A DNA stretch of 64,000 nt from an uncultured Chloroflexia bacterium (GTDB lineage: Bacteria; Chloroflexota; Limnocylindria; Limnocylindrales; CSP1-4), in assembly GCA_963819655.1 (NCBI GenBank), contig CAWFXA010000003.1, positions 979,163 to 1,043,162 of the forward strand, given 5' to 3'. Under the pieces are notes generated by a model. It was not told the origin of the DNA. It saw nothing but the letters and a program-made list of their open reading frames with translations, and did no database searches. Made by a program: the position numbers and the translations under genes. Shown here piece after piece: positions 41,590 through 57,397 of the stretch; position 1 is the stretch's first letter; every line of letters begins with the position of its first letter.

Positions 41590-41640
41590 GCGTCCGCCGC
41601 AGCGCCGACTTGCGGCCTCGCGCCGTACCCTTGGACGGAC

Positions 41641-43318
41641 ATGCCAGCCGAATTCATCTACACGACGTACCGGCTCGCCCGGCACTACCCGCCCGACCGG
41701 ACCGTCCTCGAGGACATCTCGCTCAGCTTCTACCCGGGCGCCAAGATCGGCGTCATCGGGCCGAACGGCGCGGGCAAGTCGAGCCTGCTGCGGATCATGG
41801 CCGGGCTCGACGACGGGTTCACGGGCGACGCCCGCCTGACGCCCGGCTTCAGCGTCGGCTACCTCGATCAGGAACCGCAACTGGACCCGAGCAAAGACGT
41901 GAAGGGCAACGTTCTCGACGGCGTCCGCCCCGTCCAGGACCTCATCGACCAGTACAACGCCGTCATGGCCAAGTGGTCCGACCCCGACGCCGACTACGAG
42001 GCGGTCGGCGCCGAGCAGTCAGCACTCGAGGACAGGATCAACGCCGCCGATGCGTGGAACCTCGAGCGCAACGTCGACATCGCGACGGACGCGCTGCGCT
42101 GCCCTCCGGACGACCAGGACGTCAGCACGCTTAGCGGCGGCGAGCGACGCCGCGTGGCCCTGGCAAGGCTCCTCCTCCAGCACCCGGACCTGCTGCTGCT
42201 CGACGAGCCGACGAACCACCTCGACGCCGAGTCGGTCGACTGGCTCGAGCGTTTCCTCGACGAGTACAGCGGCACGGTCGTGGCCGTCACCCACGACCGC
42301 TACTTCCTCGACAACGTCGCGAAGTGGATCCTCGAGCTCGAGCGCGGCCGCGGCATCCCCTTCTCCGGCAACTACTCGAGCTGGCTGGAGCAGAAGCTCG
42401 AGCGCCTGTCGCGCGAGCAGAAGACGGCCGACGCGCGCCAGCGGACGCTCGCCCGCGAGCTCGAATGGGTGCGCTCGTCGGCGAGGGCCCGCCAGTCGAA
42501 GGGCAAGGCACGCCTGACGTCGTACGAGCAGCTGCTGGCCGAGTCGAACGACGCGAAGCGCACCGAGCGCGAGCTCGAGATCGCCATCCCGCCCGGACCG
42601 CGCCTCGGCGACCAGGTCATCGAGGTCGACGGACTGCGCAAGGGCTTCGGCGACCGGCTGCTCATCGAGGACCTGACGTTCTCGCTGCCGCGCTCGGGCA
42701 TCGTCGGGATCATCGGCCCGAACGGCGCCGGCAAGACGACGCTGTTCCGGATGCTCGTCGGTCAGGAGCCGCCGGATGCCGGGTCGATCACGATCGGCGA
42801 CACGGTCGTGATGTCGCTACGTCGACCAGTCGCGCGACTCGCTGCGCGGCGACCTGACGGTCTTCCAGGAGATCACCGACGGCGTCGAGGCGATCAAGGT
42901 CGGTCCGCGCGAGGTGCCCGCGCGCGCGTACGTGTCGTCATTCAACTTCCGGGGCACCGACCAGCAGAAGATGGTCGGCCAGCTGTCGGGCGGCGAGCGC
43001 AACCGGGTCCACCTCGCCAAGCTGCTCCAGTCGGGCGGCAACGTGCTGCTGCTCGACGAGCCGACCAACGACCTCGACGTCGATACGCTGCGCGCGCTCG
43101 AGACCGGGCTCGAGTCGTTCCCGGGCTGCGTCGTCGTCATCAGCCACGACCGCTGGTTCCTCGACCGGATCGCGACCCACATCCTCGCCTTCGAGGGCGA
43201 TTCGCAGGTGCGGTTCTTCGAGGGCAACGTCAGCGACTACGAGGCGTTCCGCCACAAGGAGCTGGGCACCGCCGCCGACCAGCCGCATCGCATCCGGTAC
43301 AAGCGGCTGGTGGCCTGA
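41641..43318 (+). CDS. ettA: Energy-dependent translational throttle EttA (ABC-F); one extra base near 42817
   Basis: [59 protein letters not shown]; 558 aa after correction. Confidence 0.95.
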
Positions 43319-43401
43319 CGCTGTTGATGCATATCTCCGGGCGGTCGGCGGACCTTCGGTAGCTGATGCGCATGGGCCGCATCAAGCGGCTGGTGGCGTA
43401 G
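43180..43401 (+). repeat. ettA 3' end plus downstream hairpin; left copy of ~220-bp direct repeat (att-like)
   Basis: Aligns with 51757-51977; contains the core CAAGCGGCTGGTGGC(CTGA/GTAG) twice (43300-43318, 43383-43401). Confidence 0.9.
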
Positions 43402-43432
43402 GCGGCAGGTGACCGCACGAGTCGCTTGGGCC

Positions 43433-43461
43433 TTGACCGCTTGGACGGGCCGTCGCATCCT
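43433..43461 (+). promoter_or_regulatory. Putative sigma70 promoter about 330 nt upstream of the sugar ABC operon
   Basis: TTGACC-17nt-CATCCT. Confidence 0.5.
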
Positions 43462-43794
43462 CCTACCGGCGCCAGCCGGCAACGCTGCCGGTCATTCGAG
43501 CAGACGCCATCGGGCCACCAAAGCCACTTCGAGTGAAAGGCGGTTGGTGGTGCGGTGTCGGAGCGCGATCGAACCTGACCGGGTAGACCCTGAGTCGGCA
43601 TCGTCGGATCGCGTCTCGTTCGGTTCGCTCAACGATCAATCAGCGATGGGAGTTCGCGTCGAAGAGGCGCGAGCCGCAATCCAGCCCCGTTCCGCGGCAT
43701 CGAGGCCGCGAGAGATCAAGGAGGTGACAGAGCCAACACCGGCGGTGACCGCGGCCCGCACCGCGGCTCCGAACGCGTAGGAGGAGGATCCCGG

Positions 43795-45081
43795 ATGAGG
43801 AACAGATCACTGGTGCTGCTTGGGGCGATGGTGATCGCCCTCGCGGCGGCCTGCAGCGGCGGCCAGGGCGCGAAGCCCGCGAAGCTGACGGTTGCGGCCC
43901 TCCAGGGCGATGAGAGCCTCGGATTGAAGGCGATCGCCGCAAGCTGCGGGACGCAGATCGGTACCACGATCGAGTTCGTGGACAACCCCTACGACGCCCT
44001 GTACGAGAAGCTCGTCACGACCTTCCAGGCGAACGACGGCACGTTCGACCTCGTCATGATCGACGATCCGTGGATGCCGAAGTTCGGCACTGACGGATCC
44101 TTCCAGGACCTTGGCCAATTCGGCATCAAGAGCGATCCCGACATCGCGCAGATCGTCTGGGATGTCGGCACCTGGCCGCCCCCGCACGGCGCCGTGCCAC
44201 CCAGCGAGAAGGGCAAGCCTGCCCAGCTGCTCGGCGTGACGGTCGTCGGCAACGTCCAGATGTTCATGAACCGCACAGACATCCTGCCTGCCCCCAAGAC
44301 CTACGATGAGGTGCTGGCCAACGCGAAGGCCCAGGACAAAGCCGACTTCGCGGGCTACATCATCCGGGGCAAGGCCACCAACCCCGTGACCGCGGACTTC
44401 CTGCCGATCCTTTGGTCGTTCGGTGGGGACGTCTTCGACGAGGACTGGAACGTCGTCTTCGACAACGACGCATCCAAGGCCGCTATCAAGTTCCTTGTCG
44501 AGGACCTCAAGGCCGCCGCCCAGGATGACCCGGCCAATACCGACGCCGCCGATCGATCGCAGCTCTTCTCCACGGGGAAGGGTCTGCAGTCGTCCGTGTG
44601 GCCCGGCGAGATCGCCGGCATCGTCAACAACGCGGAGACGTCGCAAGTCATCGGCAAGGCCGAATACACACCGATCCCGGCCGGCCCATCGGGCAAGGGC
44701 ATCGGCATGATGGGCAACTGGATGCTTGCCATCCCGAAGGCATCGAAGAACGGCGCTACCGCAGCTGAGTTCATCAAGTGCGCGATGTCCGCCGACTCCC
44801 AGAAGGTGATGGCGGCCAACAAGGGCATCCCGTCGCGGACCAGCGTGCTGAACGACGCCGCGCTCGGCGAGGCCAACCCGTACTTCCCCGTCTTGGCGCA
44901 GGCCCTGACGGTGCCTCCCAACTGGCGTCCTCGAACCGACCAATGGAACGCCGTCGAGAAGATCATCGGAACGCATCTCAACAACGCCCTCGCGGGTGGC
45001 GAGACGGCCGATGATGTCGCGACCAAGGCGTCCGCAGAGATCCGGACCCTGATGCAGGGAGCCGGCTATCCGACCCAGTAG
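43795..45081 (+). CDS. Sugar ABC transporter substrate-binding lipoprotein
   Basis: LAAAC lipobox, FDLVMIDDPW, PKTYDE, IPSRTSV. Confidence 0.92.
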   Translation: MRNRSLVLLGAMVIALAAACSGGQGAKPAKLTVAALQGDESLGLKAIAASCGTQIGTTIEFVDNPYDALYEKLVTTFQANDGTFDLVMIDDPWMPKFGTDGSFQDLGQFGIKSDPDIAQIVWDVGTWPPPHGAVPPSEKGKPAQLLGVTVVGNVQMFMNRTDILPAPKTYDEVLANAKAQDKADFAGYIIRGKATNPVTADFLPILWSFGGDVFDEDWNVVFDNDASKAAIKFLVEDLKAAAQDDPANTDAADRSQLFSTGKGLQSSVWPGEIAGIVNNAETSQVIGKAEYTPIPAGPSGKGIGMMGNWMLAIPKASKNGATAAEFIKCAMSADSQKVMAANKGIPSRTSVLNDAALGEANPYFPVLAQALTVPPNWRPRTDQWNAVEKIIGTHLNNALAGGETADDVATKASAEIRTLMQGAGYPTQ

Positions 45082-45105
45082 TCCAGTCATAGCGGCAATG
45101 TCCAA

Positions 45106-45147
45106 GGCCGGCCGGCCCGCGGTCCTCGCACCGCGGCCCGGCCGGCC
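45106..45147 (+). other. Strong intercistronic stem-loop after the SBP gene (mRNA stabiliser/attenuator)
   Basis: ggccggccgg-cccgcggt-loop-accgcgg-cccggccggcc. Confidence 0.65.
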
Positions 45148-45159
45148 ACGGTATTTCTC

Positions 45160-46065
45160 ATGACGACGATCGCCGCGCGCCTCCGGATCGGACCGGGCGC
45201 CACCGCGACCAGGCATGAGCGGCTGGCCTACCGGCTGCTGCTGCCCGTCTTCGGGACGGTCGTGGTGGTCGCCACGATCCCGTTCGTCCTGGCTGTCATC
45301 GAGTCGGTCACGCGCGCGGGCGAGTTCGTCGGTCTCGCGAACTACGTCCGTGCTCTGAGCAACCCGGGGCTCGCCGAGTCGGTGCGCCAGACCGCGATCT
45401 ACGGTCTGATCGTCGTCCCGTCCGAGATCCTGCTCGGACTGGGCCTCGCCCTGCTCGTCCACAAGACGATCCGATCGGCAGCCGTGAAGGCGACGATCTA
45501 CGTCCTGGCCATCATCCCGATCGTCATCCCCGGTGTCGCGGCCGGCGTGATCTTCCGGCTCATCTATGCCCCGGAGTACGGCCTGCTGAACTTCATCCTC
45601 GAGCAGCTCGGGCTCATCCAGCGGCAGATCCTCTGGCTGTCCGTGCCGCCGCTGGCGATGTTTTCCGTGGCCAGCGTCGACATCTGGCAGTGGACCGCCT
45701 TCGTCTATCTCGTCCTCTTCGCCGGGCTCCAGACCGTGCCGCACGAATCGGTCGAGGCGGCCCAGGTGGACGGGGCCAGCGCATGGGCGCAATTCCGGCA
45801 CATCGAGCTTCCGTTCATCCGACCGCTCGTGCTGCTGGTGCTGTTCTTCCGGATCGCCGACGTGTTACGGGTCTTCGACCACGTCTTCATCCTGACCGGC
45901 GGCGGGCCCGGCACCACCACCGAGTTCCTCAGCATCTACCTCTATCGGATCGCCTTCAAGTTCTCGGATCTGCCGCAGGCGTCGGCCCTCGCGGTCATGA
46001 TGATGGTCGGGATGACGGTCTTCTACACGGTCATCCTCCGGTTCATGCCCCTCGAGACCGACTGA
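45160..46065 (+). CDS. Sugar ABC transporter permease
   Basis: FVGLANY, DIWQWT, EAAQVDGA, LTGGGPG. Confidence 0.93.
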   Translation: MTTIAARLRIGPGATATRHERLAYRLLLPVFGTVVVVATIPFVLAVIESVTRAGEFVGLANYVRALSNPGLAESVRQTAIYGLIVVPSEILLGLGLALLVHKTIRSAAVKATIYVLAIIPIVIPGVAAGVIFRLIYAPEYGLLNFILEQLGLIQRQILWLSVPPLAMFSVASVDIWQWTAFVYLVLFAGLQTVPHESVEAAQVDGASAWAQFRHIELPFIRPLVLLVLFFRIADVLRVFDHVFILTGGGPGTTTEFLSIYLYRIAFKFSDLPQASALAVMMMVGMTVFYTVILRFMPLETD

Positions 46066-46907
46066 TGCGACGAGGACGCCCGCTGACAAGGGTCCTGACG
46101 GTGATCGCGTTGCTGGCCGTCGGGTTCATCTTCTTCTCTCCGCTCTATGTCCTCGTCGCAACGTCGCTCAAGACCAAGGCCGAGCTGTTCCTGCCCGAGC
46201 CGACGGTGATCCCACAGAACCCGTCGCTGGCGGCCTACGAGAATGTGCTGTTCGGCCGGAACATGATCACCCTGCTCGGGAACAGCGTGATCGTGTGCCT
46301 TATCTCGACCGTCCTGTCGCTCATCATCGCGATGGCGATCTGCTACCCGATCACCCGCCTGCCGACCTCCCGTCGGACACGGGCAGCCGTCATGAACTGG
46401 GCGCTCTCGCTCCGGTTCCTGGCGCCGATCGCGGTGGTCATCCCGTACTTCACGATCGTCCGCACGCTCGGGATCTACAACCAGCTGCCCGCCCTGATCC
46501 TCGCCTACACGATCTTCAACCTGCCGCTGTCGATCTGGATGCTCAGAGGTTTCCTGCGGGAGATCCCCCTCGAGATCGAGGACGCGGCCCTGGTCGATGG
46601 TGCGAGTCGCTGGCAGGCCTTCCGCCACGTGCTCCTGCCGATGAGCCGCATCGGTGTCGTGGCCGCCGGGATCATCGTGTTCGCCTTCGACTGGGCCGAA
46701 TTCCAGTTCGCCTTCATCCTGACCGCGACACCCCAGGCCCAGACCTTCCCGGTCGGGGTCGCCGGGCTCGTGACGCAATTCGAGATCATCTGGAACGAGA
46801 TGGCCGCGGCGGCGGTCATCGCGATCATCATCCCGGTCATCGTGATGTTCGCGGCCCGACGCCACGTCACGGCCGGGCTGACGTTCGGCGTCATCCGCGA
46901 GAAGTAG
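46065..46907 (+). CDS. Carbohydrate ABC transporter permease
   Basis: FNLPLSIWML, EIEDAALVDGAS, AGLTFG. Confidence 0.93.
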   Translation: MRRGRPLTRVLTVIALLAVGFIFFSPLYVLVATSLKTKAELFLPEPTVIPQNPSLAAYENVLFGRNMITLLGNSVIVCLISTVLSLIIAMAICYPITRLPTSRRTRAAVMNWALSLRFLAPIAVVIPYFTIVRTLGIYNQLPALILAYTIFNLPLSIWMLRGFLREIPLEIEDAALVDGASRWQAFRHVLLPMSRIGVVAAGIIVFAFDWAEFQFAFILTATPQAQTFPVGVAGLVTQFEIIWNEMAAAAVIAIIIPVIVMFAARRHVTAGLTFGVIREK

Positions 46908-46924
46908 GCAGAGAAGGGCGATCG

Positions 46925-47767
46925 ATGGCAGGGGCCGACGGCCGTTCGGCGACGGGGATCTACCTCAACGGCGCGACCATCATGACCACCCGGACCGCCC
47001 GTCACATCGAGGTCGCCCGTGCGGCCGGCTTCGATGGCGTGGAGGTACGCGCCGAGCGACTCCTCGACGCGCCCGACGAGGTCCGCGAGGCGGCCGCCGT
47101 CGTCAAGCCCGGCGAGGTGTGGAGCCTGAACGGGATCCAGCTCCAGCTCGGGTCGGACGGACGGCTCGACCACGAACGACTCGAGGCCGAGCTGCCGCCA
47201 CGGCTCGAGATCTGTCGATCCCTCGGTGCGTCCTATCTGCTCGTGGTGCCGCCGCGTGCACCGGGCGCCGAACAGGCCCCGTCGGTCGTCGCGATGCGCG
47301 AGGGTCTCGCCCGCATCCGGGACGCCGCCGCGATCGTCGAGGCGGGCACGGCATTCGAGTTCCTCGGATTCGCGGACTGCCCGATCGACACGCCGGAGCT
47401 CGCGGCGGAGGTCGTGTCGTCCGTGCCGGGCGTCGAGCTCGTGCTGGACTCGTGCCATTGGCACGCCAGCGGCGCCGGCTCGCTCGACGAATTCCCGGTC
47501 GATCGCTTGGCGATGGTCCACCTCAACGATGCACCGCCAAAGCCTCCGCGCGAGATCGAGGATGCGGATCGCGTGTTACCGGGCGGCGGCGTGATCCGTC
47601 TCGCCGACCTGGTGGCGGACCTCACCGGACGCGGCTACCGTGGAGCGTGGAGTCTCGAGACGTTCAATCCCTCGTACTGGGTGGACGACCCGATGGAGAT
47701 CGCAACGATCGGCCGGCGTCTCCTCGGCGACCTGCTTGATCCGCCCGCCACCGGGAGCCGGATATGA
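46925..47767 (+). CDS. Sugar phosphate isomerase/epimerase (AP2Ec TIM barrel, IolI-like)
   Basis: AGFDGVE, FEFLGF, LDSCH, VHLND, DADRVLPG, SLETFNP. Confidence 0.88.
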   Translation: MAGADGRSATGIYLNGATIMTTRTARHIEVARAAGFDGVEVRAERLLDAPDEVREAAAVVKPGEVWSLNGIQLQLGSDGRLDHERLEAELPPRLEICRSLGASYLLVVPPRAPGAEQAPSVVAMREGLARIRDAAAIVEAGTAFEFLGFADCPIDTPELAAEVVSSVPGVELVLDSCHWHASGAGSLDEFPVDRLAMVHLNDAPPKPPREIEDADRVLPGGGVIRLADLVADLTGRGYRGAWSLETFNPSYWVDDPMEIATIGRRLLGDLLDPPATGSRI

Positions 47768-47925
47768 AGGTCGCACTCGTTGTCGATACGCTGCGCGCGC
47801 TCGAGACCGGGCTCGAGTCGTTCTTCGAGGGCAACGTCAGCGACTACGAAGCGTTCCGGCGCAAGGAGCTGGGAACCGCCGCCGACCAGCCGCATCGCAT
47901 CCGGTATACGCGGCTCGTGGCCTGA
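47764..47925 (+). CDS. 53-aa mini-ORF built from two pieces of the EttA C-terminus
   Basis: [53 protein letters not shown]; ATGA overlap upstream; next ATG at 47927; may be an untranslated remnant. Confidence 0.5.
   Translation: MKVALVVDTLRALETGLESFFEGNVSDYEAFRRKELGTAADQPHRIRYTRLVA
47782..47925 (+). repeat. Internally deleted copy of the ettA 3' end
   Basis: 47782-47823 identical to 43079-43120; 47824-47925 matches 43217-43318 with 7 substitutions. Confidence 0.92.
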
Positions 47926-47926
47926 C

Positions 47927-49096
47927 ATGGACTGGGCGGCGAGCGTCCAAGCGGAGATCGACGCGGCGACCGTCCAACCCCTCGTTCGTCGCCACCTCGC
48001 GTCGCCAGACGCCCGGCCGACGGCGATCACCGTCCGGCCGCTCGAGTACCCGAACGTCGATCCAGATGCTCGCCTGCTCATGCGCGTGGATGGCCAGGCG
48101 ACGGAAGGTGGTGGCCAGTCGCCGTGGTCGATCGTCCTCAAGGCCTTCCGTCGGGTCGACGGGCCAGCCGTCGACGATCCGACTCACTACGAGTACTGGC
48201 AGCGGGAACCGCTCTTCTTCGAGTCCGGGCTGTGGGCGGACCTCCCGCCCGGCCTGCGATCCGTGCGACCGCTCGCCGTCGACCGGCGATCACCGGATGA
48301 GCTCTGGGTCTGGCTCGAGCCCCTGACGGACGAATACCCCGACGGCTGGCCAGCGGCGCGGTTCGAGCTGGCGGCTCATCACCTCGGGCGGTTCGCCGGA
48401 GGGTACCTTGCCGGCCACCCCATCCCGACCGCGCCATGGCTTTCGGCGACGCGGTCCATTCATCAGCAATGGAGCGTCGCGAACCCTGAGATCGGCGAGC
48501 CGGTCCTGCACGCCCTCGAGACACCGCCGACGACATCGTCCGGCGCGCCTTTCGCGTCCGCGAGCGACCGCGAGGCGTTGCGTGCCGCATTCCGTCGCCA
48601 GGCGGATCTGCTGGACGCGGCGGACGCCCTGCCTCGCGTGGTGTGCCATAACGACACGTTGGCCGCGAATCTGTTCGCTTGTCGTGCCCCCGACGGGTCG
48701 TCCGAGACCGTGGCGATCGACTGGGCGCTCGTCGGGATCGGACCGGTCGGCGCGGATCTCGGACAGCTCGTGGCCGGGAGCGCCACCTTCTTCCGAGCGC
48801 CCGTCGATGATCTCGAGACGCTCGACCGTCGGTGCTTCGAGGCATACGTCAGCGGCCTCGAGGAGGCGGCCGGTGTCGTGCCGCGCGATGTTCGGCTGGC
48901 GAGTCTTACAACCGTCCTGGCGCAGTGGACGTCGATCGTCGCGTGGCACCTGGTCCTTGCGCTCGATCCGGCGAACGACGAGTGGGTCGAGGCGTTCTGG
49001 CATCGACCACGATCGGACGTCGTCGAACAGTTCACCCCGCTGCTGTCATTCCTGGCGCGGCGCGCGAACGAAACGGTCGATCTGCTCGATCCGTGA
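47927..49096 (+). CDS. Aminoglycoside phosphotransferase / choline kinase-like protein
   Basis: IVLK, YWQRE, WLE, CHNDTLAANLF, AIDWA, DLGQL. Confidence 0.85.
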   Translation: MDWAASVQAEIDAATVQPLVRRHLASPDARPTAITVRPLEYPNVDPDARLLMRVDGQATEGGGQSPWSIVLKAFRRVDGPAVDDPTHYEYWQREPLFFESGLWADLPPGLRSVRPLAVDRRSPDELWVWLEPLTDEYPDGWPAARFELAAHHLGRFAGGYLAGHPIPTAPWLSATRSIHQQWSVANPEIGEPVLHALETPPTTSSGAPFASASDREALRAAFRRQADLLDAADALPRVVCHNDTLAANLFACRAPDGSSETVAIDWALVGIGPVGADLGQLVAGSATFFRAPVDDLETLDRRCFEAYVSGLEEAAGVVPRDVRLASLTTVLAQWTSIVAWHLVLALDPANDEWVEAFWHRPRSDVVEQFTPLLSFLARRANETVDLLDP

Positions 49097-49169
49097 GGAG
49101 GGGTCGACCGACCTGAGGCGGCGCTAGCCCGTCGCCGGAGTCTCCTCCGACGCCGGTGATGCAGGAAGA

Positions 49170-49198
49170 TTGACTCATGTTGATGAGTCATATAGCCT
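49170..49198 (+). promoter_or_regulatory. TA promoter with perfect operator TGACTCAT-gttg-ATGAGTCA
   Basis: TTGACT-17nt-TAGCCT; ATG 7 nt later (leaderless). Confidence 0.8.
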
Positions 49199-49205
49199 CA
49201 CACCC

Positions 49206-49466
49206 ATGACCAAGCGGCTGCAGGTACTGATGGATGACGACGAGCTGCGCTCGATCCAGCGACTCGCCCGAAAGGAACGCGTCACGACCGCGGAATGGGT
49301 GAGGCAACGCCTTCGCGAGGCGCAGGATCAGCGAGCGCGGCCAGATACCGAGCGCAAGCTGGCCGTCATCCGAGCGGCTTCCAAGTACAACGCGCCGGCA
49401 CCGGACATCAAGCAGATGAATGCGGAGATCGAGCAAGGCTACCTCGAGGACGGCTCGATCCCGTGA
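49206..49466 (+). CDS. vapB: RHH/CopG-type antitoxin (VapB)
   Basis: MTKRLQVLMDDDE...TTAEWVRQ; GTGA overlap with the PIN gene. Confidence 0.82.
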   Translation: MTKRLQVLMDDDELRSIQRLARKERVTTAEWVRQRLREAQDQRARPDTERKLAVIRAASKYNAPAPDIKQMNAEIEQGYLEDGSIP

Positions 49467-49858
49467 TCTTCATCGACACGAACATCCCGATGTACCTGAT
49501 CGGCGCCGACCAGACTCTGCAACTACGTGCTCGAACGTTGGTTGAGGACGCAGTCGCACTCGGCGAAGTGTTGTGCACCGATGCCGAGGTGCTCCAGGAG
49601 ATCCTCCATCGGTATCTGGCCATCCGCCGCCCGGAGTTCATCGACCCAGCATTCGAGACGCTGCTCGGTGTCGTCGACGTCGTCTACCCGATCGAGCGTG
49701 AGGACGTCGAACGTGGACGACGAGTCTTGCGGACCACGGACCGGTTATCGGCACGCGATGCGCTCCACATCGCGGTGATGCAACGCCATGATGTCGACCG
49801 TGTGTGCACCTTCGACAGCGGCTTCGAGGGAATCCCGGGGCTGACGCGGATCAGCTGA
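49463..49858 (+). CDS. vapC: PIN-domain toxin (VapC)
   Basis: IFIDTNIPMY, EVLQEI, ARDALHIA, TFDSGF. Confidence 0.92.
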   Translation: MIFIDTNIPMYLIGADQTLQLRARTLVEDAVALGEVLCTDAEVLQEILHRYLAIRRPEFIDPAFETLLGVVDVVYPIEREDVERGRRVLRTTDRLSARDALHIAVMQRHDVDRVCTFDSGFEGIPGLTRIS

Positions 49859-49882
49859 ACCGTCGGGGCGGAACCCTTGTTG

Positions 49883-49911
49883 GCCGATGCGCATGGGCCG
49901 CATCAATCGGC
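49883..49911. repeat. Isolated copy of the ettA-downstream hairpin GATGCG-CATGGGC-CGCATC
   Basis: gatgcgcatgggccgcatcaa identical to the cores near 43365 and 51941; lies between convergent vapC genes. Confidence 0.8.
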
Positions 49912-49924
49912 GTACCGCTGAGCG

Positions 49925-50356
49925 CTAGCGATCGACGCGTTTCAGCCACTCCGTCGGACTGACCGCATCAACGACGGGTCGCGATCGAGTCCGGAGCTCG
50001 TCATCGAGCGTCACGAGGGTTGCTGCGTGTCGCAACGCGGTCGCGGCATAGATCGCGTCCGCACCGCGCAACTGCAGGCGCCCGGCGAGGGCGGCGGCGT
50101 CCGCCGACGCATCGACATCGAGCGCGTGCAGCACGAGGCCGGGCATCCCGAGCAACGCTTGCCCGGCTTGCAAGGCGAGATCGGCGTCGCCGGTCCGACG
50201 TGCGATCGCGGCAGCCACCTCAACGAGGGTGAGGGTCGGTTGGTGGGTCGGCAGGTCCGCTGCGAATGCCGCGGCCAGGAACGCCGCCGCATCCGCGCCG
50301 GCCGGGTCATCCGGTGTCCCGGCCGCCACGAGCACCGACGCGTCGATGGTGATCAC
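49925..50356 (-). CDS. vapC: PIN-domain toxin (VapC)
   Basis: ITIDASV, LVEVAAA, LRGADAIY, LVTLD. Confidence 0.9.
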   Translation of the reverse strand: MITIDASVLVAAGTPDDPAGADAAAFLAAAFAADLPTHQPTLTLVEVAAAIARRTGDADLALQAGQALLGMPGLVLHALDVDASADAAALAGRLQLRGADAIYAATALRHAATLVTLDDELRTRSRPVVDAVSPTEWLKRVDR

Positions 50357-50628
50357 CGTGAGCGGTCGGCGATCACGATCTCCCGAGTCGTCCGCGGATC
50401 TTGAGCGGCTTCGGCGACTCGGTGGCCGATCGCCTCCCACCGTTTCAGCCAGGTGTCGGCGGCGGCCGGTCGGTCGACTTCAGCGATGGCCTCAGCAAGG
50501 CCCGGCGCTTCGTCGAGCCACCGCTCGAACAGCAGGACGGTCACCTCGCGAACCGATCGCCCCTCCATGGCCGACCGTGCCTTGACGCGCCGATAGAGGC
50601 CATCCGGGACATCGATCGTGGCTTTCAT
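50353..50628 (-). CDS. vapB: RHH antitoxin (VapB)
   Basis: MKATIDVPDGLYRRVKARSAMEGRSVRE; promoter TTGACG-17-TATACA-N6-ATG. Confidence 0.85.
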   Translation of the reverse strand: MKATIDVPDGLYRRVKARSAMEGRSVREVTVLLFERWLDEAPGLAEAIAEVDRPAAADTWLKRWEAIGHRVAEAAQDPRTTREIVIADRSR

Positions 50629-50716
50629 GCTTGCTGTATAACCGTATTGCTGCCGAGCGTCAAGGCGTCGGAGCGCACACAACACCGGAGTTGTCGATCC
50701 TCGCGCATGGCCCGCT

Positions 50717-51655
50717 CTACTGGGTGAGGTCGATGACCTCACGGACGGCGTCAGTGACTAGGTCGGTGTCAGCCTCGTCCATCCAGTGTGGCGCGCTCAC
50801 CACGCGCCACATGCCCGGGGACCAGCTTTCGACCCACGCAATCCGCAGGGCATCTTCCGCTTCTGTGCCGCGGTTGGAGGCATCCTGCGCCGCCAGGTAG
50901 AGCAGCGGCACGTCGGGCTCGCGATCGCGGCGGTCATGGATCCACATCGCGAGGCTGCAGTTGTCAAGCTTCTCCACCGAGTCATTCGCGTCGGCTTGGC
51001 GGTTGGCCTCGAGACAGGGGCCCCGAAAACCATTCATCTCGTCGATGTCGTAGTCCACGCCCGTTGATGAATCGAGCAGGACGACACCGGCAACGCGGTC
51101 CGGGTGAGCGACAGCGTACGCCGATGCCACGAGCCCGCCGAACGATGCTCCCAGGAGCACGAAGGGTCCTTCCTCGCCCAGGGCGGCCAGGAAGCCGTCG
51201 ACGTCTGCGATCACATCTTCTGGGGTCTGCGCGCCGTCGACGCCCTCGCTTCGACCGGTGTTGCGACGTTCGTAAGAACAGACCCGGAAGGTTTCGCCGA
51301 GGGCTTTCTCGATGCCCGCCGCGATGGCCACGCCGCGCTTGCTGAGGTCGTCGGCCCAGCCGGTGAAGTACACGACAGTAGGCGAGCCGTCTCCGGCGCA
51401 CCGGGCGTAGATGTCGTGGCCGTCCACGTCGACAAGCCCTTCAACGGCGCTGCCTGGATCGACCGGCAGCGCGATACGGGCGGGGCCTTCAGGTTCCGGC
51501 GAGGTCGGAGTGGGCTGTGGGGACGGGGAGCCGCCGGAATCGATCGACGCTGGCGGGTTCGTCGTGGACTGGGTCGCTCCACCGCACCCAGCGAGGGTCA
51601 GGGTCAGGATCGCCGCGACCGTTGCGCTTGCGCCGCCGCGCGAGATGCTGGTCAT
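50717..51655 (-). CDS. Alpha/beta hydrolase lipoprotein
   Basis: LAGC lipobox, YERRNTGRS, GASFGG nucleophile elbow, PHW. Confidence 0.87.
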   Translation of the reverse strand: MTSISRGGASATVAAILTLTLAGCGGATQSTTNPPASIDSGGSPSPQPTPTSPEPEGPARIALPVDPGSAVEGLVDVDGHDIYARCAGDGSPTVVYFTGWADDLSKRGVAIAAGIEKALGETFRVCSYERRNTGRSEGVDGAQTPEDVIADVDGFLAALGEEGPFVLLGASFGGLVASAYAVAHPDRVAGVVLLDSSTGVDYDIDEMNGFRGPCLEANRQADANDSVEKLDNCSLAMWIHDRRDREPDVPLLYLAAQDASNRGTEAEDALRIAWVESWSPGMWRVVSAPHWMDEADTDLVTDAVREVIDLTQ

Positions 51656-51756
51656 GGCCGTCCCGCCTCCGTGTCGGGTACCCGGGCCTGCGTGTCTGGC
51701 TCGGGCCGACGTCGCAACGATATACGCCGACAGTCGGAGCAAGTGAAGGGCGTAGG

Positions 51757-51977
51757 CATCCTCGCCTTCGAGGCGATTCGCAAGTTGCTCCTTCGAGGGC
51801 AACGTCAGCGACTACGAGGCGTTCCGCCACAAGGAGCTGGGCACCGCCGCCGACCAGCCGCACCGCATCCGGTACAAGCGGCTGGTGGCCTGACGACTGT
51901 TGATGCATATTTCCCGGCGGTCGGCGGACCTTCGGTAGCTGATGCGCATGGGCCGCATCAAGCGGCTCGTGGCCTGA
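51757..51977 (+). repeat. Right copy of the ~220-bp direct repeat (ettA 3' end plus hairpin; attR-like)
   Basis: 51791-51893 differs from ettA 43216-43318 at 1 base; 5' ~35 bp degraded; downstream 84 bp conserved. Confidence 0.92.
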
Positions 51978-51984
51978 GTGGGCT

Positions 51985-52452
51985 TCAGGCGGTGAGCTGC
52001 ACCACCTCGATCTCCGGGGAGTTGTCGCCCAGGCGCGGACGCCACGACCGGTCGTCCGTGACCACCAGGTCCGCGCCGGTCACCACGGCACTCGCGACGA
52101 TGAGTGCGTCGGGCATCGGCAGATCGGTCGACGCGCGCAGCCGCGCCGCCTCGCGCGCGACGTCGTAGGTCACCGGGACGAGGCGCAGGTCCCCGAAGTG
52201 CTGGAGGAATGCCTCCGCCGTCGCGACCGCGCCTGCACCGCGGCGGAACGGACGCACGAGAATCTCCGCGACCGTGACCATCGACAGCGATGCGAGATTG
52301 CGGCCGGTCGCCACGAATGCGTCGAAGAGCTCTTCGGCTCGGGAACTTCCCGGCTCGCCACCGGCCAGGTATGCGAGAACGACCGAGCTGTCGATCAGGA
52401 GCGAAGCTCCCGGCGGGATGGTGTCGGATAGCTGACGCGGGCGGTCAGCCAC
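51985..52452 (-). CDS. vapC: PIN-domain toxin (VapC)
   Basis: LIDSSV, TVAEIL, PDALIVASA, VTDD. Confidence 0.9.
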   Translation of the reverse strand: MADRPRQLSDTIPPGASLLIDSSVVLAYLAGGEPGSSRAEELFDAFVATGRNLASLSMVTVAEILVRPFRRGAGAVATAEAFLQHFGDLRLVPVTYDVAREAARLRASTDLPMPDALIVASAVVTGADLVVTDDRSWRPRLGDNSPEIEVVQLTA

Positions 52453-52696
52453 GCGGCTCCCACGTCGCACGCTCTCCCGCGAGGTAGTCGGCGGGATCCC
52501 CGTATACGTCGCGCAAAGCGCCGGCGTAGCTCGAGCGGATGCGATGCAGGCGGATCGTGTCGGGATCGTCGGGCGTGATCTCGACCAGGAATCGATCCCC
52601 TTCGGCGACGCCGGCGGTCTCGACGATCGGCTCCGGGAGCGTCAGCTGGCTCTTTGCACGAAGACGGGCCTCCGCATGGACGGCGAGTCGTGACAT
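52445..52696 (-). CDS. AbrB/MazE-type antitoxin
   Basis: RLRAKSQLTLP...GVAEGD; YLAGERATW; TAAGCT -10 just before the ATG. Confidence 0.85.
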   Translation of the reverse strand: MSRLAVHAEARLRAKSQLTLPEPIVETAGVAEGDRFLVEITPDDPDTIRLHRIRSSYAGALRDVYGDPADYLAGERATWEPRG

Positions 52697-52772
52697 GTAC
52701 GACAGCTTACACGAGAGTCCCACTCGCACGCAATGGGTGCGACCGACCGAGCTTCGATACGACTTGGCTCGC

Positions 52773-53324
52773 TCAGAGCGCCGCTTCGCGGGCTCGGTGC
52801 CACGCCTCGCTGAGGCCGAGGGCTGAGGTCCAGCGGTCGATGTAGTCCTCATCGAGGTCGCTCACGATGGCGATGATCCCCGCGACATCGCGCATCTGTC
52901 GTTCGGAGCCTGTCGCTGCCGCCCACTCGAGCTTGGCGATGACCAGATCCTCGGCGGTCGCGACGAACCCCGGCGTGCCGAGGAGGTCGGCCGGTGCTCG
53001 CCGACCGAATTCCTCGATCGAGAACGGCCGATCCCGGCGGATGATCAGATCCACCTTCGTCGCGTCCGGTCCGATGGCGTTGAATTGCGAGCGCTGCGCC
53101 AGGGCCTCGCGCGCCACGTCCGGGTCGATGTAGAAGTCAGCCGCGATCAACGCGCCAACGAAGCGGGTCAGCGCTTCGACCGTCGGGTCGATGACGATGT
53201 CGACGTCCCGGGTCGCACGTGGCTCGCCGTGGTACGAGCTCGCCAGGGAGCCGGTGACCATGTAGGGAACTCCCGCGGCGTCGAGCCTGGTGATCACGGC
53301 CGCCAGCAGTCCGGCGAAGGTCAC
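52773..53324 (-). CDS. Nucleotidyltransferase, MenT1 (Rv0078A)-like putative toxin
   Basis: GS.A...GEPRATRDVDIV, KVD, EDLVIAKL, RQMRD. Confidence 0.8.
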   Translation of the reverse strand: MTFAGLLAAVITRLDAAGVPYMVTGSLASSYHGEPRATRDVDIVIDPTVEALTRFVGALIAADFYIDPDVAREALAQRSQFNAIGPDATKVDLIIRRDRPFSIEEFGRRAPADLLGTPGFVATAEDLVIAKLEWAAATGSERQMRDVAGIIAIVSDLDEDYIDRWTSALGLSEAWHRAREAAL

Positions 53325-53572
53325 GACTCGGCGGTGGGCTCCGATCCCGCCGTCATCGCCGCGTCGGGCCTGGCCAGCATCCGGGCGAGCTCAGCCGCGT
53401 GCTCGTCCGCCGACCAGTCCGGGTGTCGTTGACGGATCCCCAATTCGGTCAGCGCGCGGACGTCAGCACTCAGCTCGGCGGCCAATCGCAGACGCTCAGC
53501 GGGCGTCATCGATCGGTACGCATCGAGCTGCCGACGGTGGGCGTCGACCGACGTATCGCGTGGTCGGAGCAC
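53321..53572 (-). CDS. Small helical partner, MenA1 (Rv0078B)-like putative antitoxin
   Basis: DTS...MTPAERLRLA...GIRQRHPDWS; GTGA overlap with the NTase. Confidence 0.72.
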   Translation of the reverse strand: MLRPRDTSVDAHRRQLDAYRSMTPAERLRLAAELSADVRALTELGIRQRHPDWSADEHAAELARMLARPDAAMTAGSEPTAES

Positions 53573-53694
53573 GGTCGCACTTTACCGCGGCGGCGATCAA
53601 GAGTGGTGGCGCGCGGAGCCAGATGTAGCCTGCTGGCTAAGGGACGATCACCAGTCCAGCGACCGCCGCGAAGGACGACCAAGCGGGCGGGTGG

Positions 53695-54546
53695 TCATTC
53701 GGTATCGGTCGGTGGGAGGGTGCTCGTCGGGACGACCGTGATCTCAGTGCCCACGGTGACGTCGGACATCCCGTCCGGCGAATAGCCGTTCGCAAAGAGG
53801 CCATGTACACCTGGAGCGATATCCGATGGGATCCGAGTGTGGATCACGACCGACCCATTGGCAGACGTCCAGGCGAACCGGCCGATCTGTCGGCAAGGGT
53901 GAGGCCAGCATTCACCCTGGGTCGGGTGCGTGTCGATGGTGAGATGGACCCGGCTCTTCGGAAGAAAACCGCCCGCGGTGACCGTCACGCGCTGTCCAGG
54001 CACGACTGTATCGTCGTCGATCTGCATCACCTCGGGCGAACCGATGACCAGGATGTAGACGTACGCCGAGCAGTCGAGGCTGACGACCCGCAACTGGGTC
54101 TCGCCGATCGACGCATCGACGGGGATCAGACCGTCGACCACGCCATCGCCGTCGTTACCAGCCGTGCCAGTCCCGATCGGTCGCTCGGCAAGATCAGGCC
54201 ACCACTCCCCGTAGAGGAGAGTCACGACCGAGCCGGGCGCGAAGCCCTCGAAGCGGATTCGAACCGTGCCGCCTCGAACGATGTGATCTACCGGGGCTCG
54301 GGCGAAGGTCGTATCGCAGACGGGGTCGGGAGGGGTCCCGGTCGGCGCCGGTGTGGCGGTTGGCACAGGCGTCGCGGTGGGCGCAGGGGTCTCGGTCGGA
54401 GTCGGCGTCGGCGTCGCCGTGGGGGTGGGCGTCGGTGTCGGAGTCGGCGTCGCCGCGGACCCGGGTGACGCCAAACTCGCGACGAGCAGGAGCCCAATCC
54501 CCGACCCCACCGCAGACCGCCATCGCCATCGTCGACTGTCGTGCAT
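53695..54546 (-). CDS. Secreted PT-repeat protein with two Ig-like domains, ending TLPPTDTE (paralog of 60892-61699)
   Basis: Signal peptide, (TP)n stalk, duplicated GF.P...V.L...G...IP.D unit, TQGECWP.PCR. Confidence 0.8.
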   Translation of the reverse strand: MHDSRRWRWRSAVGSGIGLLLVASLASPGSAATPTPTPTPTPTATPTPTPTETPAPTATPVPTATPAPTGTPPDPVCDTTFARAPVDHIVRGGTVRIRFEGFAPGSVVTLLYGEWWPDLAERPIGTGTAGNDGDGVVDGLIPVDASIGETQLRVVSLDCSAYVYILVIGSPEVMQIDDDTVVPGQRVTVTAGGFLPKSRVHLTIDTHPTQGECWPHPCRQIGRFAWTSANGSVVIHTRIPSDIAPGVHGLFANGYSPDGMSDVTVGTEITVVPTSTLPPTDTE

Positions 54547-54568
54547 TGCCGCACCTCCTAACGGCTAG

Positions 54569-54600
54569 ATGACGCGATCCGCTGGTGGGTCTTGCAGTCG
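54569..54600 (-). promoter_or_regulatory. ECF-type promoter TGCAAG-N16-CGTCAT
   Basis: Same boxes and spacing upstream of the paralog (61723-61754) while the spacer has diverged. Confidence 0.65.
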
Positions 54601-54877
54601 CGAGCGCGATGCGACGCCGAAGAACGGGCGGAGCCGGCAATGCCGACTCCGCCCGGTGTCCTGCGCCCGGCGCGAGGGGGGATCGCGTCGATGCAGGCTT
54701 GGCGCCGAACCGAGGGCAGGGGGATGCCCCCGGCCGGCGAACAGGGATCTCTGGTGACCGAGATATCGTCCGACGCCGCGGCGCCGAGTCCTACGGCACG
54801 AGGCAGCAATACGGAAACCGGTCGATTGCCGAGGTCATGCAGTCGACCGACAGCCCGGTCGTACACTCAGAGGCTCG

Positions 54878-56284
54878 GTGGGCACGACGACGACTCGGAA
54901 CGTCATCACGCTCGTCCTGCCGGAGATCGAGACGGTCGTCGCGGCCCTCGCCGCGGACCTGGCGGACTCGCAGGACGAGCTGCGAGCGCGCGTCCGCCTG
55001 GCGTACCTGAGCACCATGGTCGCCGCCGATGCCGACGATCTCGAGGCGGCCATCGACGTCCTTCGCGCCCGCGCAGCCGGCGACGAGGTGGCCAACCCGT
55101 TCGGCCGCCGCGTCAAGGCAGACTCGTTCGACGACGTGGTCGAGGTCGCCGACCGAGCGCTCGCCGAGGGCAGTCTCGACCTCATGACCGTCCTCGCGCT
55201 CCAGTACCAGTCCGGCGCGATCGCGGCCGTGCAGGGTCGGCGGTTGCTCCTGTTCCGCGATGTCAACGACCAGATCTACCGCCTCATGTGGGAGCACGGG
55301 GCGGCCGAGCTGGCCCGACGCGGCGACCCGCCGGAGCGGTACATCGAGCTTGGTCGCTGGCTGATGCTGTGGACCGAGATGTCGTCCCTGGCGGTCAGCG
55401 AGGGGTATCGAGCCACCGAGCGCGATTTCCTTGCCCGTGACGTCGCCGCCCGCCGTGCCGCGCTCGATGAACTGATCGGCTCCATCCCCACCGACACGCG
55501 CGCCAGGTCGCGGGTTCGTCGGCTGGCGGTGCGGTACGGCCTCGACCCCGACGCGGCGTATCGGGTCGCCGCGATCCTCCCGGGTCCCGAGGTCGACCCG
55601 ACGCCTGATGAAGCGGGCATCGACGACGACGACCTCGACGACCTCGCCCGGCGCATCGATCAGCTCCTGAGCCGGCGCGCCGCCAGCGACCGCCCGTACG
55701 ACGGGATCCGGGTGCCCATGGCGTTCAGCTGGCGGGGATCGATCGTGGCCATCCTGGGGTCCGACCCGCGCGAGTGGGTGCGGCTGCAGGAGTCGCTGGG
55801 GAGGGTCCTCGCGCCGACCGGTCGCAGTCGGCGTCAGGCGGTGACGGCCGCCGACCCGACGTGGACCGCCATCGCGATGCGCGCCGACGGGGTCCCGGCG
55901 CTGGCGCGGTCGATGGTCGAGCTGCAGGAGGGCCTACGCGTGGCCAAACGGATCGGCCGGCGTGGGGTGATCGACGACGTCGCCGAGCTCGGCGTCGAAC
56001 GGCTGCTACTGAGCGACCCGGACCTGGCCGCGGCGGTCATCGATCGCGAGCTCGGGCCGCTCCTGGCGGACCCGCGCCTGGGCGACGAGCTGGTCGAGAC
56101 GCTCCAGATCTACTACGACGTCGGCGGCAACCGACGCGCGACGGCCCGCCGTCTCCACCTTGCGGATCGCACCGTGGCGTACCGGCTGGAGCGCGCCGAG
56201 GACCTGCTCGGCCACGGGTTCGACGGCGAACCGGGCCGGCGGCTCAACCTCGCGCTGACGCTGCGGCGTCTGATAGGCCACTAG
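54878..56284 (+). CDS. PucR/CdaR family transcriptional regulator
   Basis: LGPLL...LVETL..Y....GNRRATARRLHLADRTVAYRLERAEDLLG. Confidence 0.88.
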   Translation: MGTTTTRNVITLVLPEIETVVAALAADLADSQDELRARVRLAYLSTMVAADADDLEAAIDVLRARAAGDEVANPFGRRVKADSFDDVVEVADRALAEGSLDLMTVLALQYQSGAIAAVQGRRLLLFRDVNDQIYRLMWEHGAAELARRGDPPERYIELGRWLMLWTEMSSLAVSEGYRATERDFLARDVAARRAALDELIGSIPTDTRARSRVRRLAVRYGLDPDAAYRVAAILPGPEVDPTPDEAGIDDDDLDDLARRIDQLLSRRAASDRPYDGIRVPMAFSWRGSIVAILGSDPREWVRLQESLGRVLAPTGRSRRQAVTAADPTWTAIAMRADGVPALARSMVELQEGLRVAKRIGRRGVIDDVAELGVERLLLSDPDLAAAVIDRELGPLLADPRLGDELVETLQIYYDVGGNRRATARRLHLADRTVAYRLERAEDLLGHGFDGEPGRRLNLALTLRRLIGH

Positions 56285-56397
56285 GGAGCCGGGCCCACCT
56301 GACCGGCGCGCAGCGACCGCGTCTCGCCGAAGCGAAACGCGCACACTCATTGAGGGCCAGCCTTGACGGCCCGCGCGGCAGAAGGAGGCTCGAACCG

Positions 56398-56685
56398 ATG
56401 TGCTGCATGATCGCCGCCCTGTTCGCGTTCGGCCCGAGGGCCGCCATCCTGATCTGGTACGTCCTTGAGCCAGTGCGCTGGAACCAGACGTTCGATACGT
56501 TCCTGTGGCCGCTCGCAGGCTTCCTCGTCGCGCCATGGACGACGCTGATGTACGTCCTCGTGTACCCGGCCGGCATCAATGGCTTCGACTACGTCTGGCT
56601 CGTGATCGGGATAGCGTTTGACCTGTTCTCGTGGTCAGGTAACGCCTACACGAACCGCGATCGGATGCCGATGTCGCGGGCCTGA
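56398..56685 (+). CDS. Small conserved membrane protein
   Basis: AAGGAGG RBS; MCC...GPRAA...WPLAGFLVAPWTTLMY. Confidence 0.75.
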   Translation: MCCMIAALFAFGPRAAILIWYVLEPVRWNQTFDTFLWPLAGFLVAPWTTLMYVLVYPAGINGFDYVWLVIGIAFDLFSWSGNAYTNRDRMPMSRA

Positions 56686-56768
56686 AGCCCATACGCTCGA
56701 CCGCGATGCCAACGCTCGCGCCCTGACCGGTACGAGCGGCTCGTCGCATAGGACCGGCGAGGGTCGGC

Positions 56769-57287
56769 TCAGCCCACCTCGTGCGTCATCTGGTCGATCG
56801 CAACCGTGGCGGCCAGGACGAGGGCGACGTCCTCGTTCGGACCGATCTCGACGCCGTACGTGTCGCGTACGCGGAACCACTTCTTCGAGACGTTCGCGAC
56901 CTGGTTGCCGTCCCGCTCGAACTCGTACTGATGGTCGGTGATCTTGCCCTTGACCTCGTACTTCACGCCGTTCGCGACCTCGACATCGAACCGCTCTCGA
57001 AGCGGGGTGAACAAGGCCTTCTTGACGGTCGCCAGCGTCTGCCCTCCACGCTCGATAGTCATGACATCGCGAACGCTCACCAGCTTCTCCTTGAGCGTGG
57101 CCACCTCATTCCCTGCGACGTCCTCGATGACGAGGGTCTTACGGATCCGGAAGGCCTTGCCATCGACCTTGAACGCGCGTTGGCCGGCGCCGTTCTCGAT
57201 CCAGTAGTCGTCGCCGATGGAGACCAGCGACTGGCGCATCTGGTAGACGTTGGCTGGTGCGCTGTCGTCTCGGTTTCGGCGGAACAT
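56769..57287 (-). CDS. LURP-one-related / scramblase (tubby-like) protein
   Basis: SIGDDYWIE, FKVDGK, VSKKWFRVRDTYGVEI. Confidence 0.9.
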   Translation of the reverse strand: MFRRNRDDSAPANVYQMRQSLVSIGDDYWIENGAGQRAFKVDGKAFRIRKTLVIEDVAGNEVATLKEKLVSVRDVMTIERGGQTLATVKKALFTPLRERFDVEVANGVKYEVKGKITDHQYEFERDGNQVANVSKKWFRVRDTYGVEIGPNEDVALVLAATVAIDQMTHEVG

Positions 57288-57397
57288 GGCTCATCCCTCC
57301 TGGGTTCGATCCCGCGTTTGTCGAGTCGCCCCACCTTATCCCCGGTCCACAAACCTCGGGCTGAACACCGACGTCCGGTGCAAGAGCGATCCGGGCG

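Follow-up and report, generated by a model that had tools for sequence, protein, structure and literature searches.

Stacked ettA 3′ ends with alternative downstream regions in the genome of an uncultured Chloroflexia bacterium

ettA is followed by further copies of its own 3′ end

The window analysed here, a stretch of 64 kb, is the end of contig C3 in the assembly of an uncultured Chloroflexia bacterium (genome G000; 3.49 Mb in three contigs, 69% G+C, estimated to be 91% complete). It contains ettA, the gene of an ABC-F translation factor, and behind it 13.4 kb that reach from the ettA stop codon (43318) to a short copy of the ettA 3′ end terminating at 56751. These 13.4 kb are a stack of alternative 'ettA end plus downstream' regions. 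Six direct copies of the ettA 3′ end, named a, b, c, e, f, and g, are distributed from 43301 to 56751, and the cargo genes are organized in blocks 1 to 3 (Table 1). Copy a is the end of the working gene, of which it forms the last 18 nucleotides (nt; 43301-43318). Copies c and e are long remnants, whereas b, f, and g are short cores. The remnant lengths in the window are 18, 18, 24, 137, and 150 nt.

A sequence-only reading of the window had reported five direct 19-bp cores ending at the ettA stop codon, and all five are present on the plus strand where it placed them. The number expected by chance is 0.01 per window, and five were reached in none of 100 shuffles. A matrix built from the ettA ends of relatives and the cores of the window detects six sites on the plus strand and none on the minus strand. 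The additional site is core g, which had been missed, so that the array, although real, ends at 56751 and not at 53610, the end of the previously proposed extent (43079..53610). Core g marks an ancestral ettA-stop junction.

Self-comparison of the window confirms the copies: the segments 43216-43320, 47823-47927 (92%), and 51791-51895 (99%) form one family of 105 nt. Remnant c shares a further 48 nt with ettA (43073-43120 = 47776-47823, 96% identity). It has an internal deletion of 92 nt relative to ettA and is fused in frame to the start of a cut oxidoreductase gene. The last 105 nt of remnant e are 99% identical to the end of the working gene, and the sequence further to the left is decayed. 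A unit of 219 nt, which includes copies a and b at 43180-43397, recurs with copies e and f at 51757-51973 with 95% identity.

The copies differ from each other as alleles do. Within the last 105 nt, a and c are distinguished by five synonymous and two non-synonymous differences. Core g differs from a in three synonymous positions, one non-synonymous position, and the stop codon (TGA/TAG), and the changes in cores b and f are synonymous or confined to the stop codon. Mainly synonymous differences are as expected if each core once closed a working ettA. Remnants c (93%) and e (95-99%) are nearest to the genome's own tail; the best value among 23 relatives is 92.7%. BLASTN found no further copy of the tail elsewhere in G000, for example beside an integrase. 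Local direct-repeat pairs are rare in this genome, with only 14 of 60-600 nt, at least 85% identity, and a spacing of 0.3-30 kb; three of them are the ettA tails.

Table 1. Features of the ettA locus, with positions in the window (a dot in the strand column stands for no single strand)
Feature	Position	Strand	Basis or remark
ettA (ABC-F translation factor), working copy	41641..43318	+	translations; ABC_tran by Pfam
Dispersed repeat, copy 1	43325..43384	+	directly after ettA stop; 96% identical to 51901-51960
Core b, last 18 nt of an ettA allele (…GCG TAG), heads cargo 1	43384..43401	+	sequence
Cargo 1, sugar ABC operon	43402..47775	+	Pfam
Sugar ABC binding protein (cargo 1)	43795-45081	+	Pfam
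Two permeases (cargo 1)	45160-46065, 46062-46907	+	Pfam
Xylose-isomerase-like TIM barrel (cargo 1)	46925-47767	+	Pfam
Oxidoreductase gene, first ~5 codons only (cargo 1)	from 47764	+	comparison with G407, G181
Remnant c, ettA 43073-43120 + 43213-43318, heads APH-like gene	47776..47925	+	alignment
Cargo 2	47926..51756	.	Pfam
APH-like ORF (cargo 2)	47927-49096	+	ORF (open reading frame)
RHH/PIN pair (cargo 2)	49170-49858	+	Pfam
Dispersed repeat, partial/truncated	49873..49905	.	between two convergent PIN genes
PIN/ParD-like pair (cargo 2)	49925-50742	-	Pfam
Alpha/beta hydrolase (cargo 2)	50717-51655/51802	-	Pfam
Remnant e, last 139 nt of ettA minus two 1-nt deletions	51757..51893	+	alignment
Dispersed repeat, copy 2	51901..51960	+	precedes core f
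Core f, heads cargo 3, after dispersed repeat copy	51960..51977	+	alignment
Cargo 3	51978..56727	.	Pfam
PIN, vapC3 unit (cargo 3)	51985-52470	-	Pfam
Antitoxin beside cargo 3 PIN (predicted)	52445-52852	-	small ORF, no family
Unknown 'MenT-like' ORF (cargo 3)	52773-53324	-	ORF
Rv0078B-like antitoxin (cargo 3)	53321-53572	-	Pfam
Thr/Pro-rich secreted protein (cargo 3)	53695-54546	-	listed in cargo 3
PucR-type regulator (cargo 3)	54878-56284	+	Pfam
Small membrane protein (cargo 3)	56380-56685	+	listed in cargo 3
Core g, last 24 nt of an ettA allele (CGG TAC GAG CGG CTC GTC GCA TAG)	56728..56751	+	degenerate 14-mer
LOR-family gene, ancestral downstream neighbour of ettA	56769..57287	-	PF04525; synteny

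The unit-heading junctions occur behind ettA in other genomes

All four of the junctions that head a unit (b, c, f, and g) are genuine ettA-stop junctions in another genome or sample. The samples are represented by Logan contigs of the runs X1-X4, which inform on presence only (only 0.28 of the sampled words are contained in the best run); uncovered parts and joints with a short side of about 20 were not counted as evidence. The junction of core b with cargo 1 is found in a contig of X2, which reads an ettA tail, GTAG, 26 nt, and then the sequence from 43413 onward, without the dispersed repeat described below. The APH-like gene behind remnant c is contiguous with ettA in G408, with 92% identity through the junction, and in G407, where its start codon reads ATC. 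A similar junction in G296 was withdrawn from consideration, since the gene there is a different one. The step from core f into vapC3 is the ettA-to-vapC3 junction of G382. The DNA of 56752-57314, which contains the LOR gene behind core g, directly follows the ettA stop codon in G024, G228, and G409; in G407 and G408, it stands behind remnants. The window therefore stacks four alternative 'ettA end plus downstream' haplotypes that are found singly elsewhere. The earlier proposal that the ettA terminus is a reused insertion point is borne out by these junctions, as older ends have been pushed downstream together with their own downstream genes.

The joint on the other side of a unit can be read before remnant c. 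The 4.36-kb block of cargo 1 is present elsewhere in the region in G407 (94.6% identity) and G181 (89%), where its Gfo/Idh/MocA oxidoreductase gene (PF01408) is complete. In the window, this gene, the fifth of the operon, is interrupted at about codon 6, where it is joined to approximately nt 1433 of ettA. The position of the joint inside a gene indicates illegitimate joining rather than an att site. In two other samples, contigs end at 47774, where remnant c begins. The X1 contig runs out of cargo 1 into the first bases of c; it contains 47472-47782, 226 other nt, and then 49205-50664, without the APH-like gene.

Arrays are rare among relatives, and the DNA behind ettA is hypervariable

The genus was surveyed in a census of 131 genomes, with six candidates scored per genome. 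A tail match was obtained in 98 genomes, 94 of which have a single tail. The remaining four (G000, G405, G407, and G408) each have at least two tails on the same contig and strand. The tails most similar to those of the window are from G408 (97%), G352 (96%), and G407 and G409 (95% each); G352 and G409 are single-tailed. A family-wide draw of 301 genomes, with two candidates scored per genome, added one same-contig double, G124. The remnant of G124 (L017, G124:C72:147-376) has an in-frame internal deletion of 171 nt and stands after the stop codon of an unrelated gene; the full ettA lies about 4 kb downstream of it on the same contig of 6.1 kb.

The arrays of the other three genomes of the genus have their own layouts. 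In G408, ettA with an internal deletion of 1033 nt is followed by the APH-like gene, a 369-nt remnant, and the LOR gene. The locus G408:C1:11942-14187 (L249) contains no full-length ettA, and nt 1-207 are joined there to nt 1241-1678. In G407, the closest relative, ettA is followed by an APH-like pseudogene, an 88-nt remnant, the LOR gene, two copies of the dispersed repeat with an f core, and then vapC3-antitoxin and, further on, the PucR gene, the small membrane gene, and the complete sugar operon. The tail-headed units are thus ordered differently in G407 and in the window, and the unit of repeat, f, and vapC3 stands away from any long tail in G407. In G405 (G405:C21, L252/L253), 20 kb of metabolic genes with a lower G+C content of 62-66% separate ettA from a 289-nt remnant. 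The genes of this island include sugar transport, dehydrogenase, P450, and corrinoid-methyltransferase-like genes, and no mobility genes are present among its 58 open frames.

The downstream DNA was compared at 23 loci for up to 18 kb past ettA, 22 from the genus and that of G124 from another genus. The DNA after the stop codon differs almost everywhere, no second downstream tail is present at the 22 genus loci, and the matrix scan of the 23 loci detected no second core site. A degenerate stretch that resembles a tail, behind the small membrane gene in G264, was rejected, its score being below the threshold. Toxin-antitoxin (TA) pairs, the PucR gene, the small membrane protein gene, and the LOR gene recur downstream of ettA in relatives in shuffled orders. 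The DNA downstream of ettA is a hypervariable region, and the same TA pairs are also found in it in relatives that lack tail repeats.

Gene content of the locus

The labels that the sequence-only reading gave to the cargo genes largely hold by Pfam. However, the 'phosphotransferase' (the APH-like ORF) and the 'MenT-like' ORF match no Pfam or NCBIfam family. Each of the three ORFs with a PIN domain lies beside a small ORF, one of which matches RHH_1 (E = 0.0026) and one a ParD-like family (E = 0.0026), whereas the third belongs to no family. By their sequences, the PIN ORFs and their small neighbours are predicted type II VapBC-like TA pairs. A fourth predicted pair combines an antitoxin of the Rv0078B type with an ORF that matches no family in Pfam or NCBIfam. 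The units comprise four to seven genes and have genes on both strands. The 18-nt periodic repeats at 54341-54469 correspond to the Thr/Pro-rich stretch of the secreted protein encoded on the minus strand at 53695-54546.

The working copy of ettA is 93% identical to that of G407 over 1705 nt of DNA. The N-terminal 389 residues of EttA are read in frame 1 and the true C-terminus in frame 2, and one surplus base near 42815-42817 is absent from both G407 and the X1 contig. The surplus base is probably a consensus error of the long-read assembly, or else a real frameshift; apart from it, ettA is complete. Full-length homologues of ettA were found in all 41 relatives searched. The 5′ side of ettA is occupied by a gene of the YbhB/PEBP family and an unknown ORF (40212-40664 and 40699-41589), both of which stand downstream of ettA in G021, G241, G181, and G408. 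Rearrangement among relatives therefore extends to the 5′ flank of ettA.

A dispersed repeat precedes two of the short cores

Cores b and f are not free-standing, as each is preceded by a copy of a repeat of about 60 nt that is dispersed in the genome. Its consensus is TGATGCAYAT ... TGATGCG-N7-CGCATCA, with a core that is a 7-7-7 inverted repeat. The genome contains 22 copies with at most one mismatch in the 19-nt core and 38 with at most three. The copies are positioned on both strands between ordinary genes, for example at C2:1717966-1742059, often as convergent pairs 100-140 nt apart. The repeat also occurs at the ettA-downstream junctions of relatives, in two copies in G407 and inverted in G228. 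Its predicted fold is no better than that of shuffled sequences (z -0.56), and the Rfam scan of 41000-58000 returned nothing relevant, with one chance miRNA match only. An attC-, dif-, or lox-like site was considered for the repeat and rejected because it occurs on both strands, gives no fold signal, and has no common flank.

No recombinase genes were found in the window

The sequence-only reading had noticed no recombinase or transposase in the 64 kb, and this agrees with the domain searches: none is encoded among 77 ORFs (18 of the array and 59 other open frames of at least 200 aa), and neither PF00589 nor PF00239 has a match in the window. There is thus no match to an IntI-type tyrosine recombinase by PF00589 either. 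The genome scan that it had suggested for orphan recombinases yielded six PF00589 matches at five loci, all outside the window, but no PF00239 match. Non-Xer-like PF00589 matches in G000 are located at C2:733792, C2:738003, and, broken, at C3:2310-2776. The ettA contigs of G407 and G408 have no PF00589 match, and that of G405 has just two distant ones, which are Xer-like.

ettA remnants in other phyla and proviruses at ettA

The same pattern was looked for in 80 metagenome loci, of which 39 extend at least 3 kb downstream of ettA, and in 80 loci of species representatives (66 with at least 3 kb). In the metagenome locus L073, ettA is followed by a PIN/MazE-type pair and then by an ettA tail of about 75 nt. 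The two tails encode the same ending, KKFSR*, with different codons (TTT AGC CGC vs TTC TCA AGG), and the repeat extends 10 nt beyond the stop codon. In L133, from a metagenome-assembled genome (MAG) of Acidobacteriota, a 71-nt tail including the stop codon lies 2.3 kb and a second ettA fragment 6.7 kb downstream of ettA, with TPR and kinase genes in between. Short remnants are present in L129 (31 nt, 97%) and L176 (26 nt, 92%); that of L175 (34 nt, 85%) is too weak and doubtful. All remnants found beyond the clade are in direct orientation. The pattern recurs independently in other phyla.

Viral contigs contain 63 loci that match the EttA C-terminus, and the tblastn matches of 30 of them were examined. 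No ettA tail fragment lies beside an integrase in the 30 loci listed or in L184 and L202, which were inspected closely. The proviruses found in IMG/VR are on the 5′ side of ettA. Fourteen of them (L185-L198; 16-54 kb, locus G+C 0.40-0.61) end exactly at ettA. In the three that were inspected (L185, L187, and L194), an ORF of about 430 aa stops approximately 30 nt short of the ettA start. Arm-DNA-bind_2 and Phage_integrase domains are contained in the two that were scanned (L185:3399-4703 and L187:3416-4705). In those hosts, prophages thus appear to have an attachment region on the 5′ side of ettA. A near-perfect palindrome of about 90 nt directly follows the ettA stop codon at L184:668-760, in a related metagenome contig with an EttA C-terminus that is 82% identical.

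Serial insertion behind ettA and alternative explanations

The stack was probably formed by serial additive insertion behind ettA, anchored by homology at one end and joined illegitimately at the other, without an integron-like or integrase system. We infer the following course. DNA of a related strain, starting inside ettA and continuing into its own downstream genes, would enter the cell and pair with the resident ettA by homology, so that ettA gains a new 3′ end. The non-homologous far end would be joined illegitimately inside the resident ettA tail. Either a linear piece would undergo homology-facilitated illegitimate recombination (HFIR), or its ends would first be joined and the resulting circle integrated through one crossover by RecA. 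What remains of the resident tail between the joint and the stop codon would survive downstream along with the resident genes. Repeated rounds would stack the units, and later deletions would trim the remnants. Gene conversion between tails may have rendered a and e, together with the adjacent dispersed repeat, nearly identical. Such a course would not need a dedicated recombinase. A Ku homologue is present in the genome.

Several observations speak against this course of events. No junction has been caught in the act. HFIR in experiments is rare, orders of magnitude below homologous recombination, according to the available text of PMC5361080. At least four events are stacked here, as opposed to a single tail in 94 of 98 genomes, and such clustering would fit a lineage-specific enzyme. 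The 219-nt duplication of a-b and e-f is accounted for only with an additional step, either gene conversion or a circle. A possible microhomology of CTC/CTCG at the c joint, read by eye, gives way to two mismatches. The comparison is based on MAGs throughout, several of them with frameshifts.

The sequence-only reading had favoured an integron-like, recombinase-driven cassette system. It finds no support in the variable left ends, the cut oxidoreductase gene, and the multi-gene units on both strands, and neither tyrosine nor serine recombinases were found in or near the four arrays of the genus. A related possibility is site-specific accretion of elements whose attP carries the ettA 3′ end, with a recombinase that acts in trans or was lost, as in CIME or ccr-less SCC elements. 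Direct repeats of the target 3′ end do flank every unit while the working gene stays complete, the repeat of L073 extends beyond the stop codon in a way conceivable for an att core, and integrases do use the 5′ side of ettA in the IMG/VR proviruses. Phage 21/e14 duplicates about 165 nt of icd. The left ends of the arrays vary from 18 to 369 nt without a common boundary, however, and the unit before c ends within a truncated gene. A trans-acting enzyme could be provided by the three non-Xer-like PF00589 loci of G000, one of them broken, and the clustering of arrays in the closest relatives (G000, G407, and G408 are among the five most similar tails) is in keeping with it, but the BLASTN search, in a genome that is 91% complete, and the inspected viral loci (30 listed and two closely read, of 63) place no tail copy next to an integrase. 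Cargo 1, moreover, stands in G407 and G181 without flanking tails. Accretion of this type is unlikely.

It is also conceivable that the tails serve as portable RecA sites, such that circles of tail plus cargo are excised, re-inserted, and swapped, and the array is an active recombinase-free cassette system and not a fossil. The different order of the tail + APH-like, tail + LOR, and repeat + f + vapC3 units in G407 and the window would follow from such exchange, as would the 99% identity of a and e over 105 nt despite the decay of the rest of e. RecA can act on tails of 88-369 nt, whereas its efficient exchange requires more than the 18-24 nt of cores b, f, and g. The deletions and frameshifts of c and e are those of decaying fossils, and neither a tail-to-tail joint nor a circle is present among the Logan joints listed (15 of 150), which is a weak argument. 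Taken together, we consider an active exchange system rather improbable. Concatenation of strain haplotypes during long-read metagenome assembly is by far the least credible origin of the stack. The region is hypervariable among strains, and the three-contig MAG has at least one probable indel error in ettA, but the remnants are truncated and decayed instead of being full strain copies. Misassembly is made unlikely by the arrays of three other MAGs (G405, G407, and G408) and by the contigs of two other samples that break at 47774; the X1 contig also enters c from cargo 1.

It is a speculative and rather improbable proposition that the strongly conserved ettA 3′ end is both a recombinase-free landing pad across phyla, behind which host recombination could place any DNA with an ettA tail, and a portable site, from which tail-headed units, often TA pairs, are excised, exchanged, and re-stacked. 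If true, it would constitute a general, undescribed route by which modules without an integrase, such as TA loci, come to lie beside highly conserved genes.

Comparison with known systems

Integrative elements that target gene 3′ ends, such as phage 21/e14 at icd, ICESt/CIME at fda, and the SCC arrays at rlmH, replace the 3′ end of the gene and accrete in tandem. The displaced end stays as a direct repeat, the gene remains intact, and some of the tandem units have no recombinase. The ettA array resembles them in the 3′-end direct repeats around its units and in the completeness of the target gene. However, such elements are characterized by a defined att core, by their cognate recombinase, and by ends that spare the cargo genes. 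An att core or constant crossover, a cognate recombinase, and ends sparing the cargo genes were looked for at the ettA locus and not found.

Chromosomal integrons and integrase-less attC clusters carry TA cassettes. As in these clusters, an array of units with several TA pairs has no local recombinase that could be found. Unlike in integrons, there are no attC-type sites; the boundaries are coding remnants of ettA of 18-150 nt, and the units are multi-gene and on both strands.

The arrays of orphan rhs and cdiA fragments ('C-terminal displacement'), with which Jackson et al. 2009 is also reported to deal, are similar in architecture. The available text of Poole et al. (2011, PMC3150448) describes orphan cdiA-CT/cdiI and rhs-CT arrays in which the fragments keep varying amounts of conserved sequence, and orphan modules that occupy different positions in related strains. 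The ettA locus shares several traits with these arrays: fragments of the gene's 3′ end stand behind the full-length copy and vary in length, each of them heads a variable module that other strains carry directly on the full-length gene, the modules change position from strain to strain, and no dedicated recombinase is known. The border lies inside a polymorphic toxin gene in those arrays, and the modules are toxin tips with their immunity genes. In contrast, the border here is the stop codon of the housekeeping gene ettA, and the modules are a sugar operon, TA pairs, a hydrolase, and a regulator.

For the immunity gene arrays of the type VI secretion system of Vibrio cholerae, a conserved upstream anchor together with an illegitimate far end has been proposed (Kirchberger et al. 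2017, PMC5361080, available text). Old genes, sometimes with the 3′ end of the displaced gene, shift downstream there, and repeated rounds build the array, which is the course proposed for ettA. The V. cholerae system is under effector/immunity selection, and the incoming module displaces the effector gene or domain downstream of the anchor, whereas the anchor ettA is itself complete after each round. The available text of that account describes no housekeeping anchor of this kind. A literature search, the coverage of which was not exhaustive, returned no account of ettA/yjjK as an insertion site.

The entry of small modules without mobility genes, such as TA pairs and operons, is poorly documented outside polymorphic-toxin loci. 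At the ettA locus, at least four additive gains can still be read, each of them marked by a displaced end of a housekeeping gene, and the 'before' states survive in relatives. The recurrence of the signature in unrelated phyla suggests that highly conserved genes can be homology anchors for additive gene gain generally. Should the remnants additionally serve for exchange, this locus would represent the recombinase-free equivalent of an integron. Displacement arrays themselves are known; what sets the present one apart is the stop-codon end of the housekeeping gene ettA as the anchor and ordinary downstream genes as the cargo.

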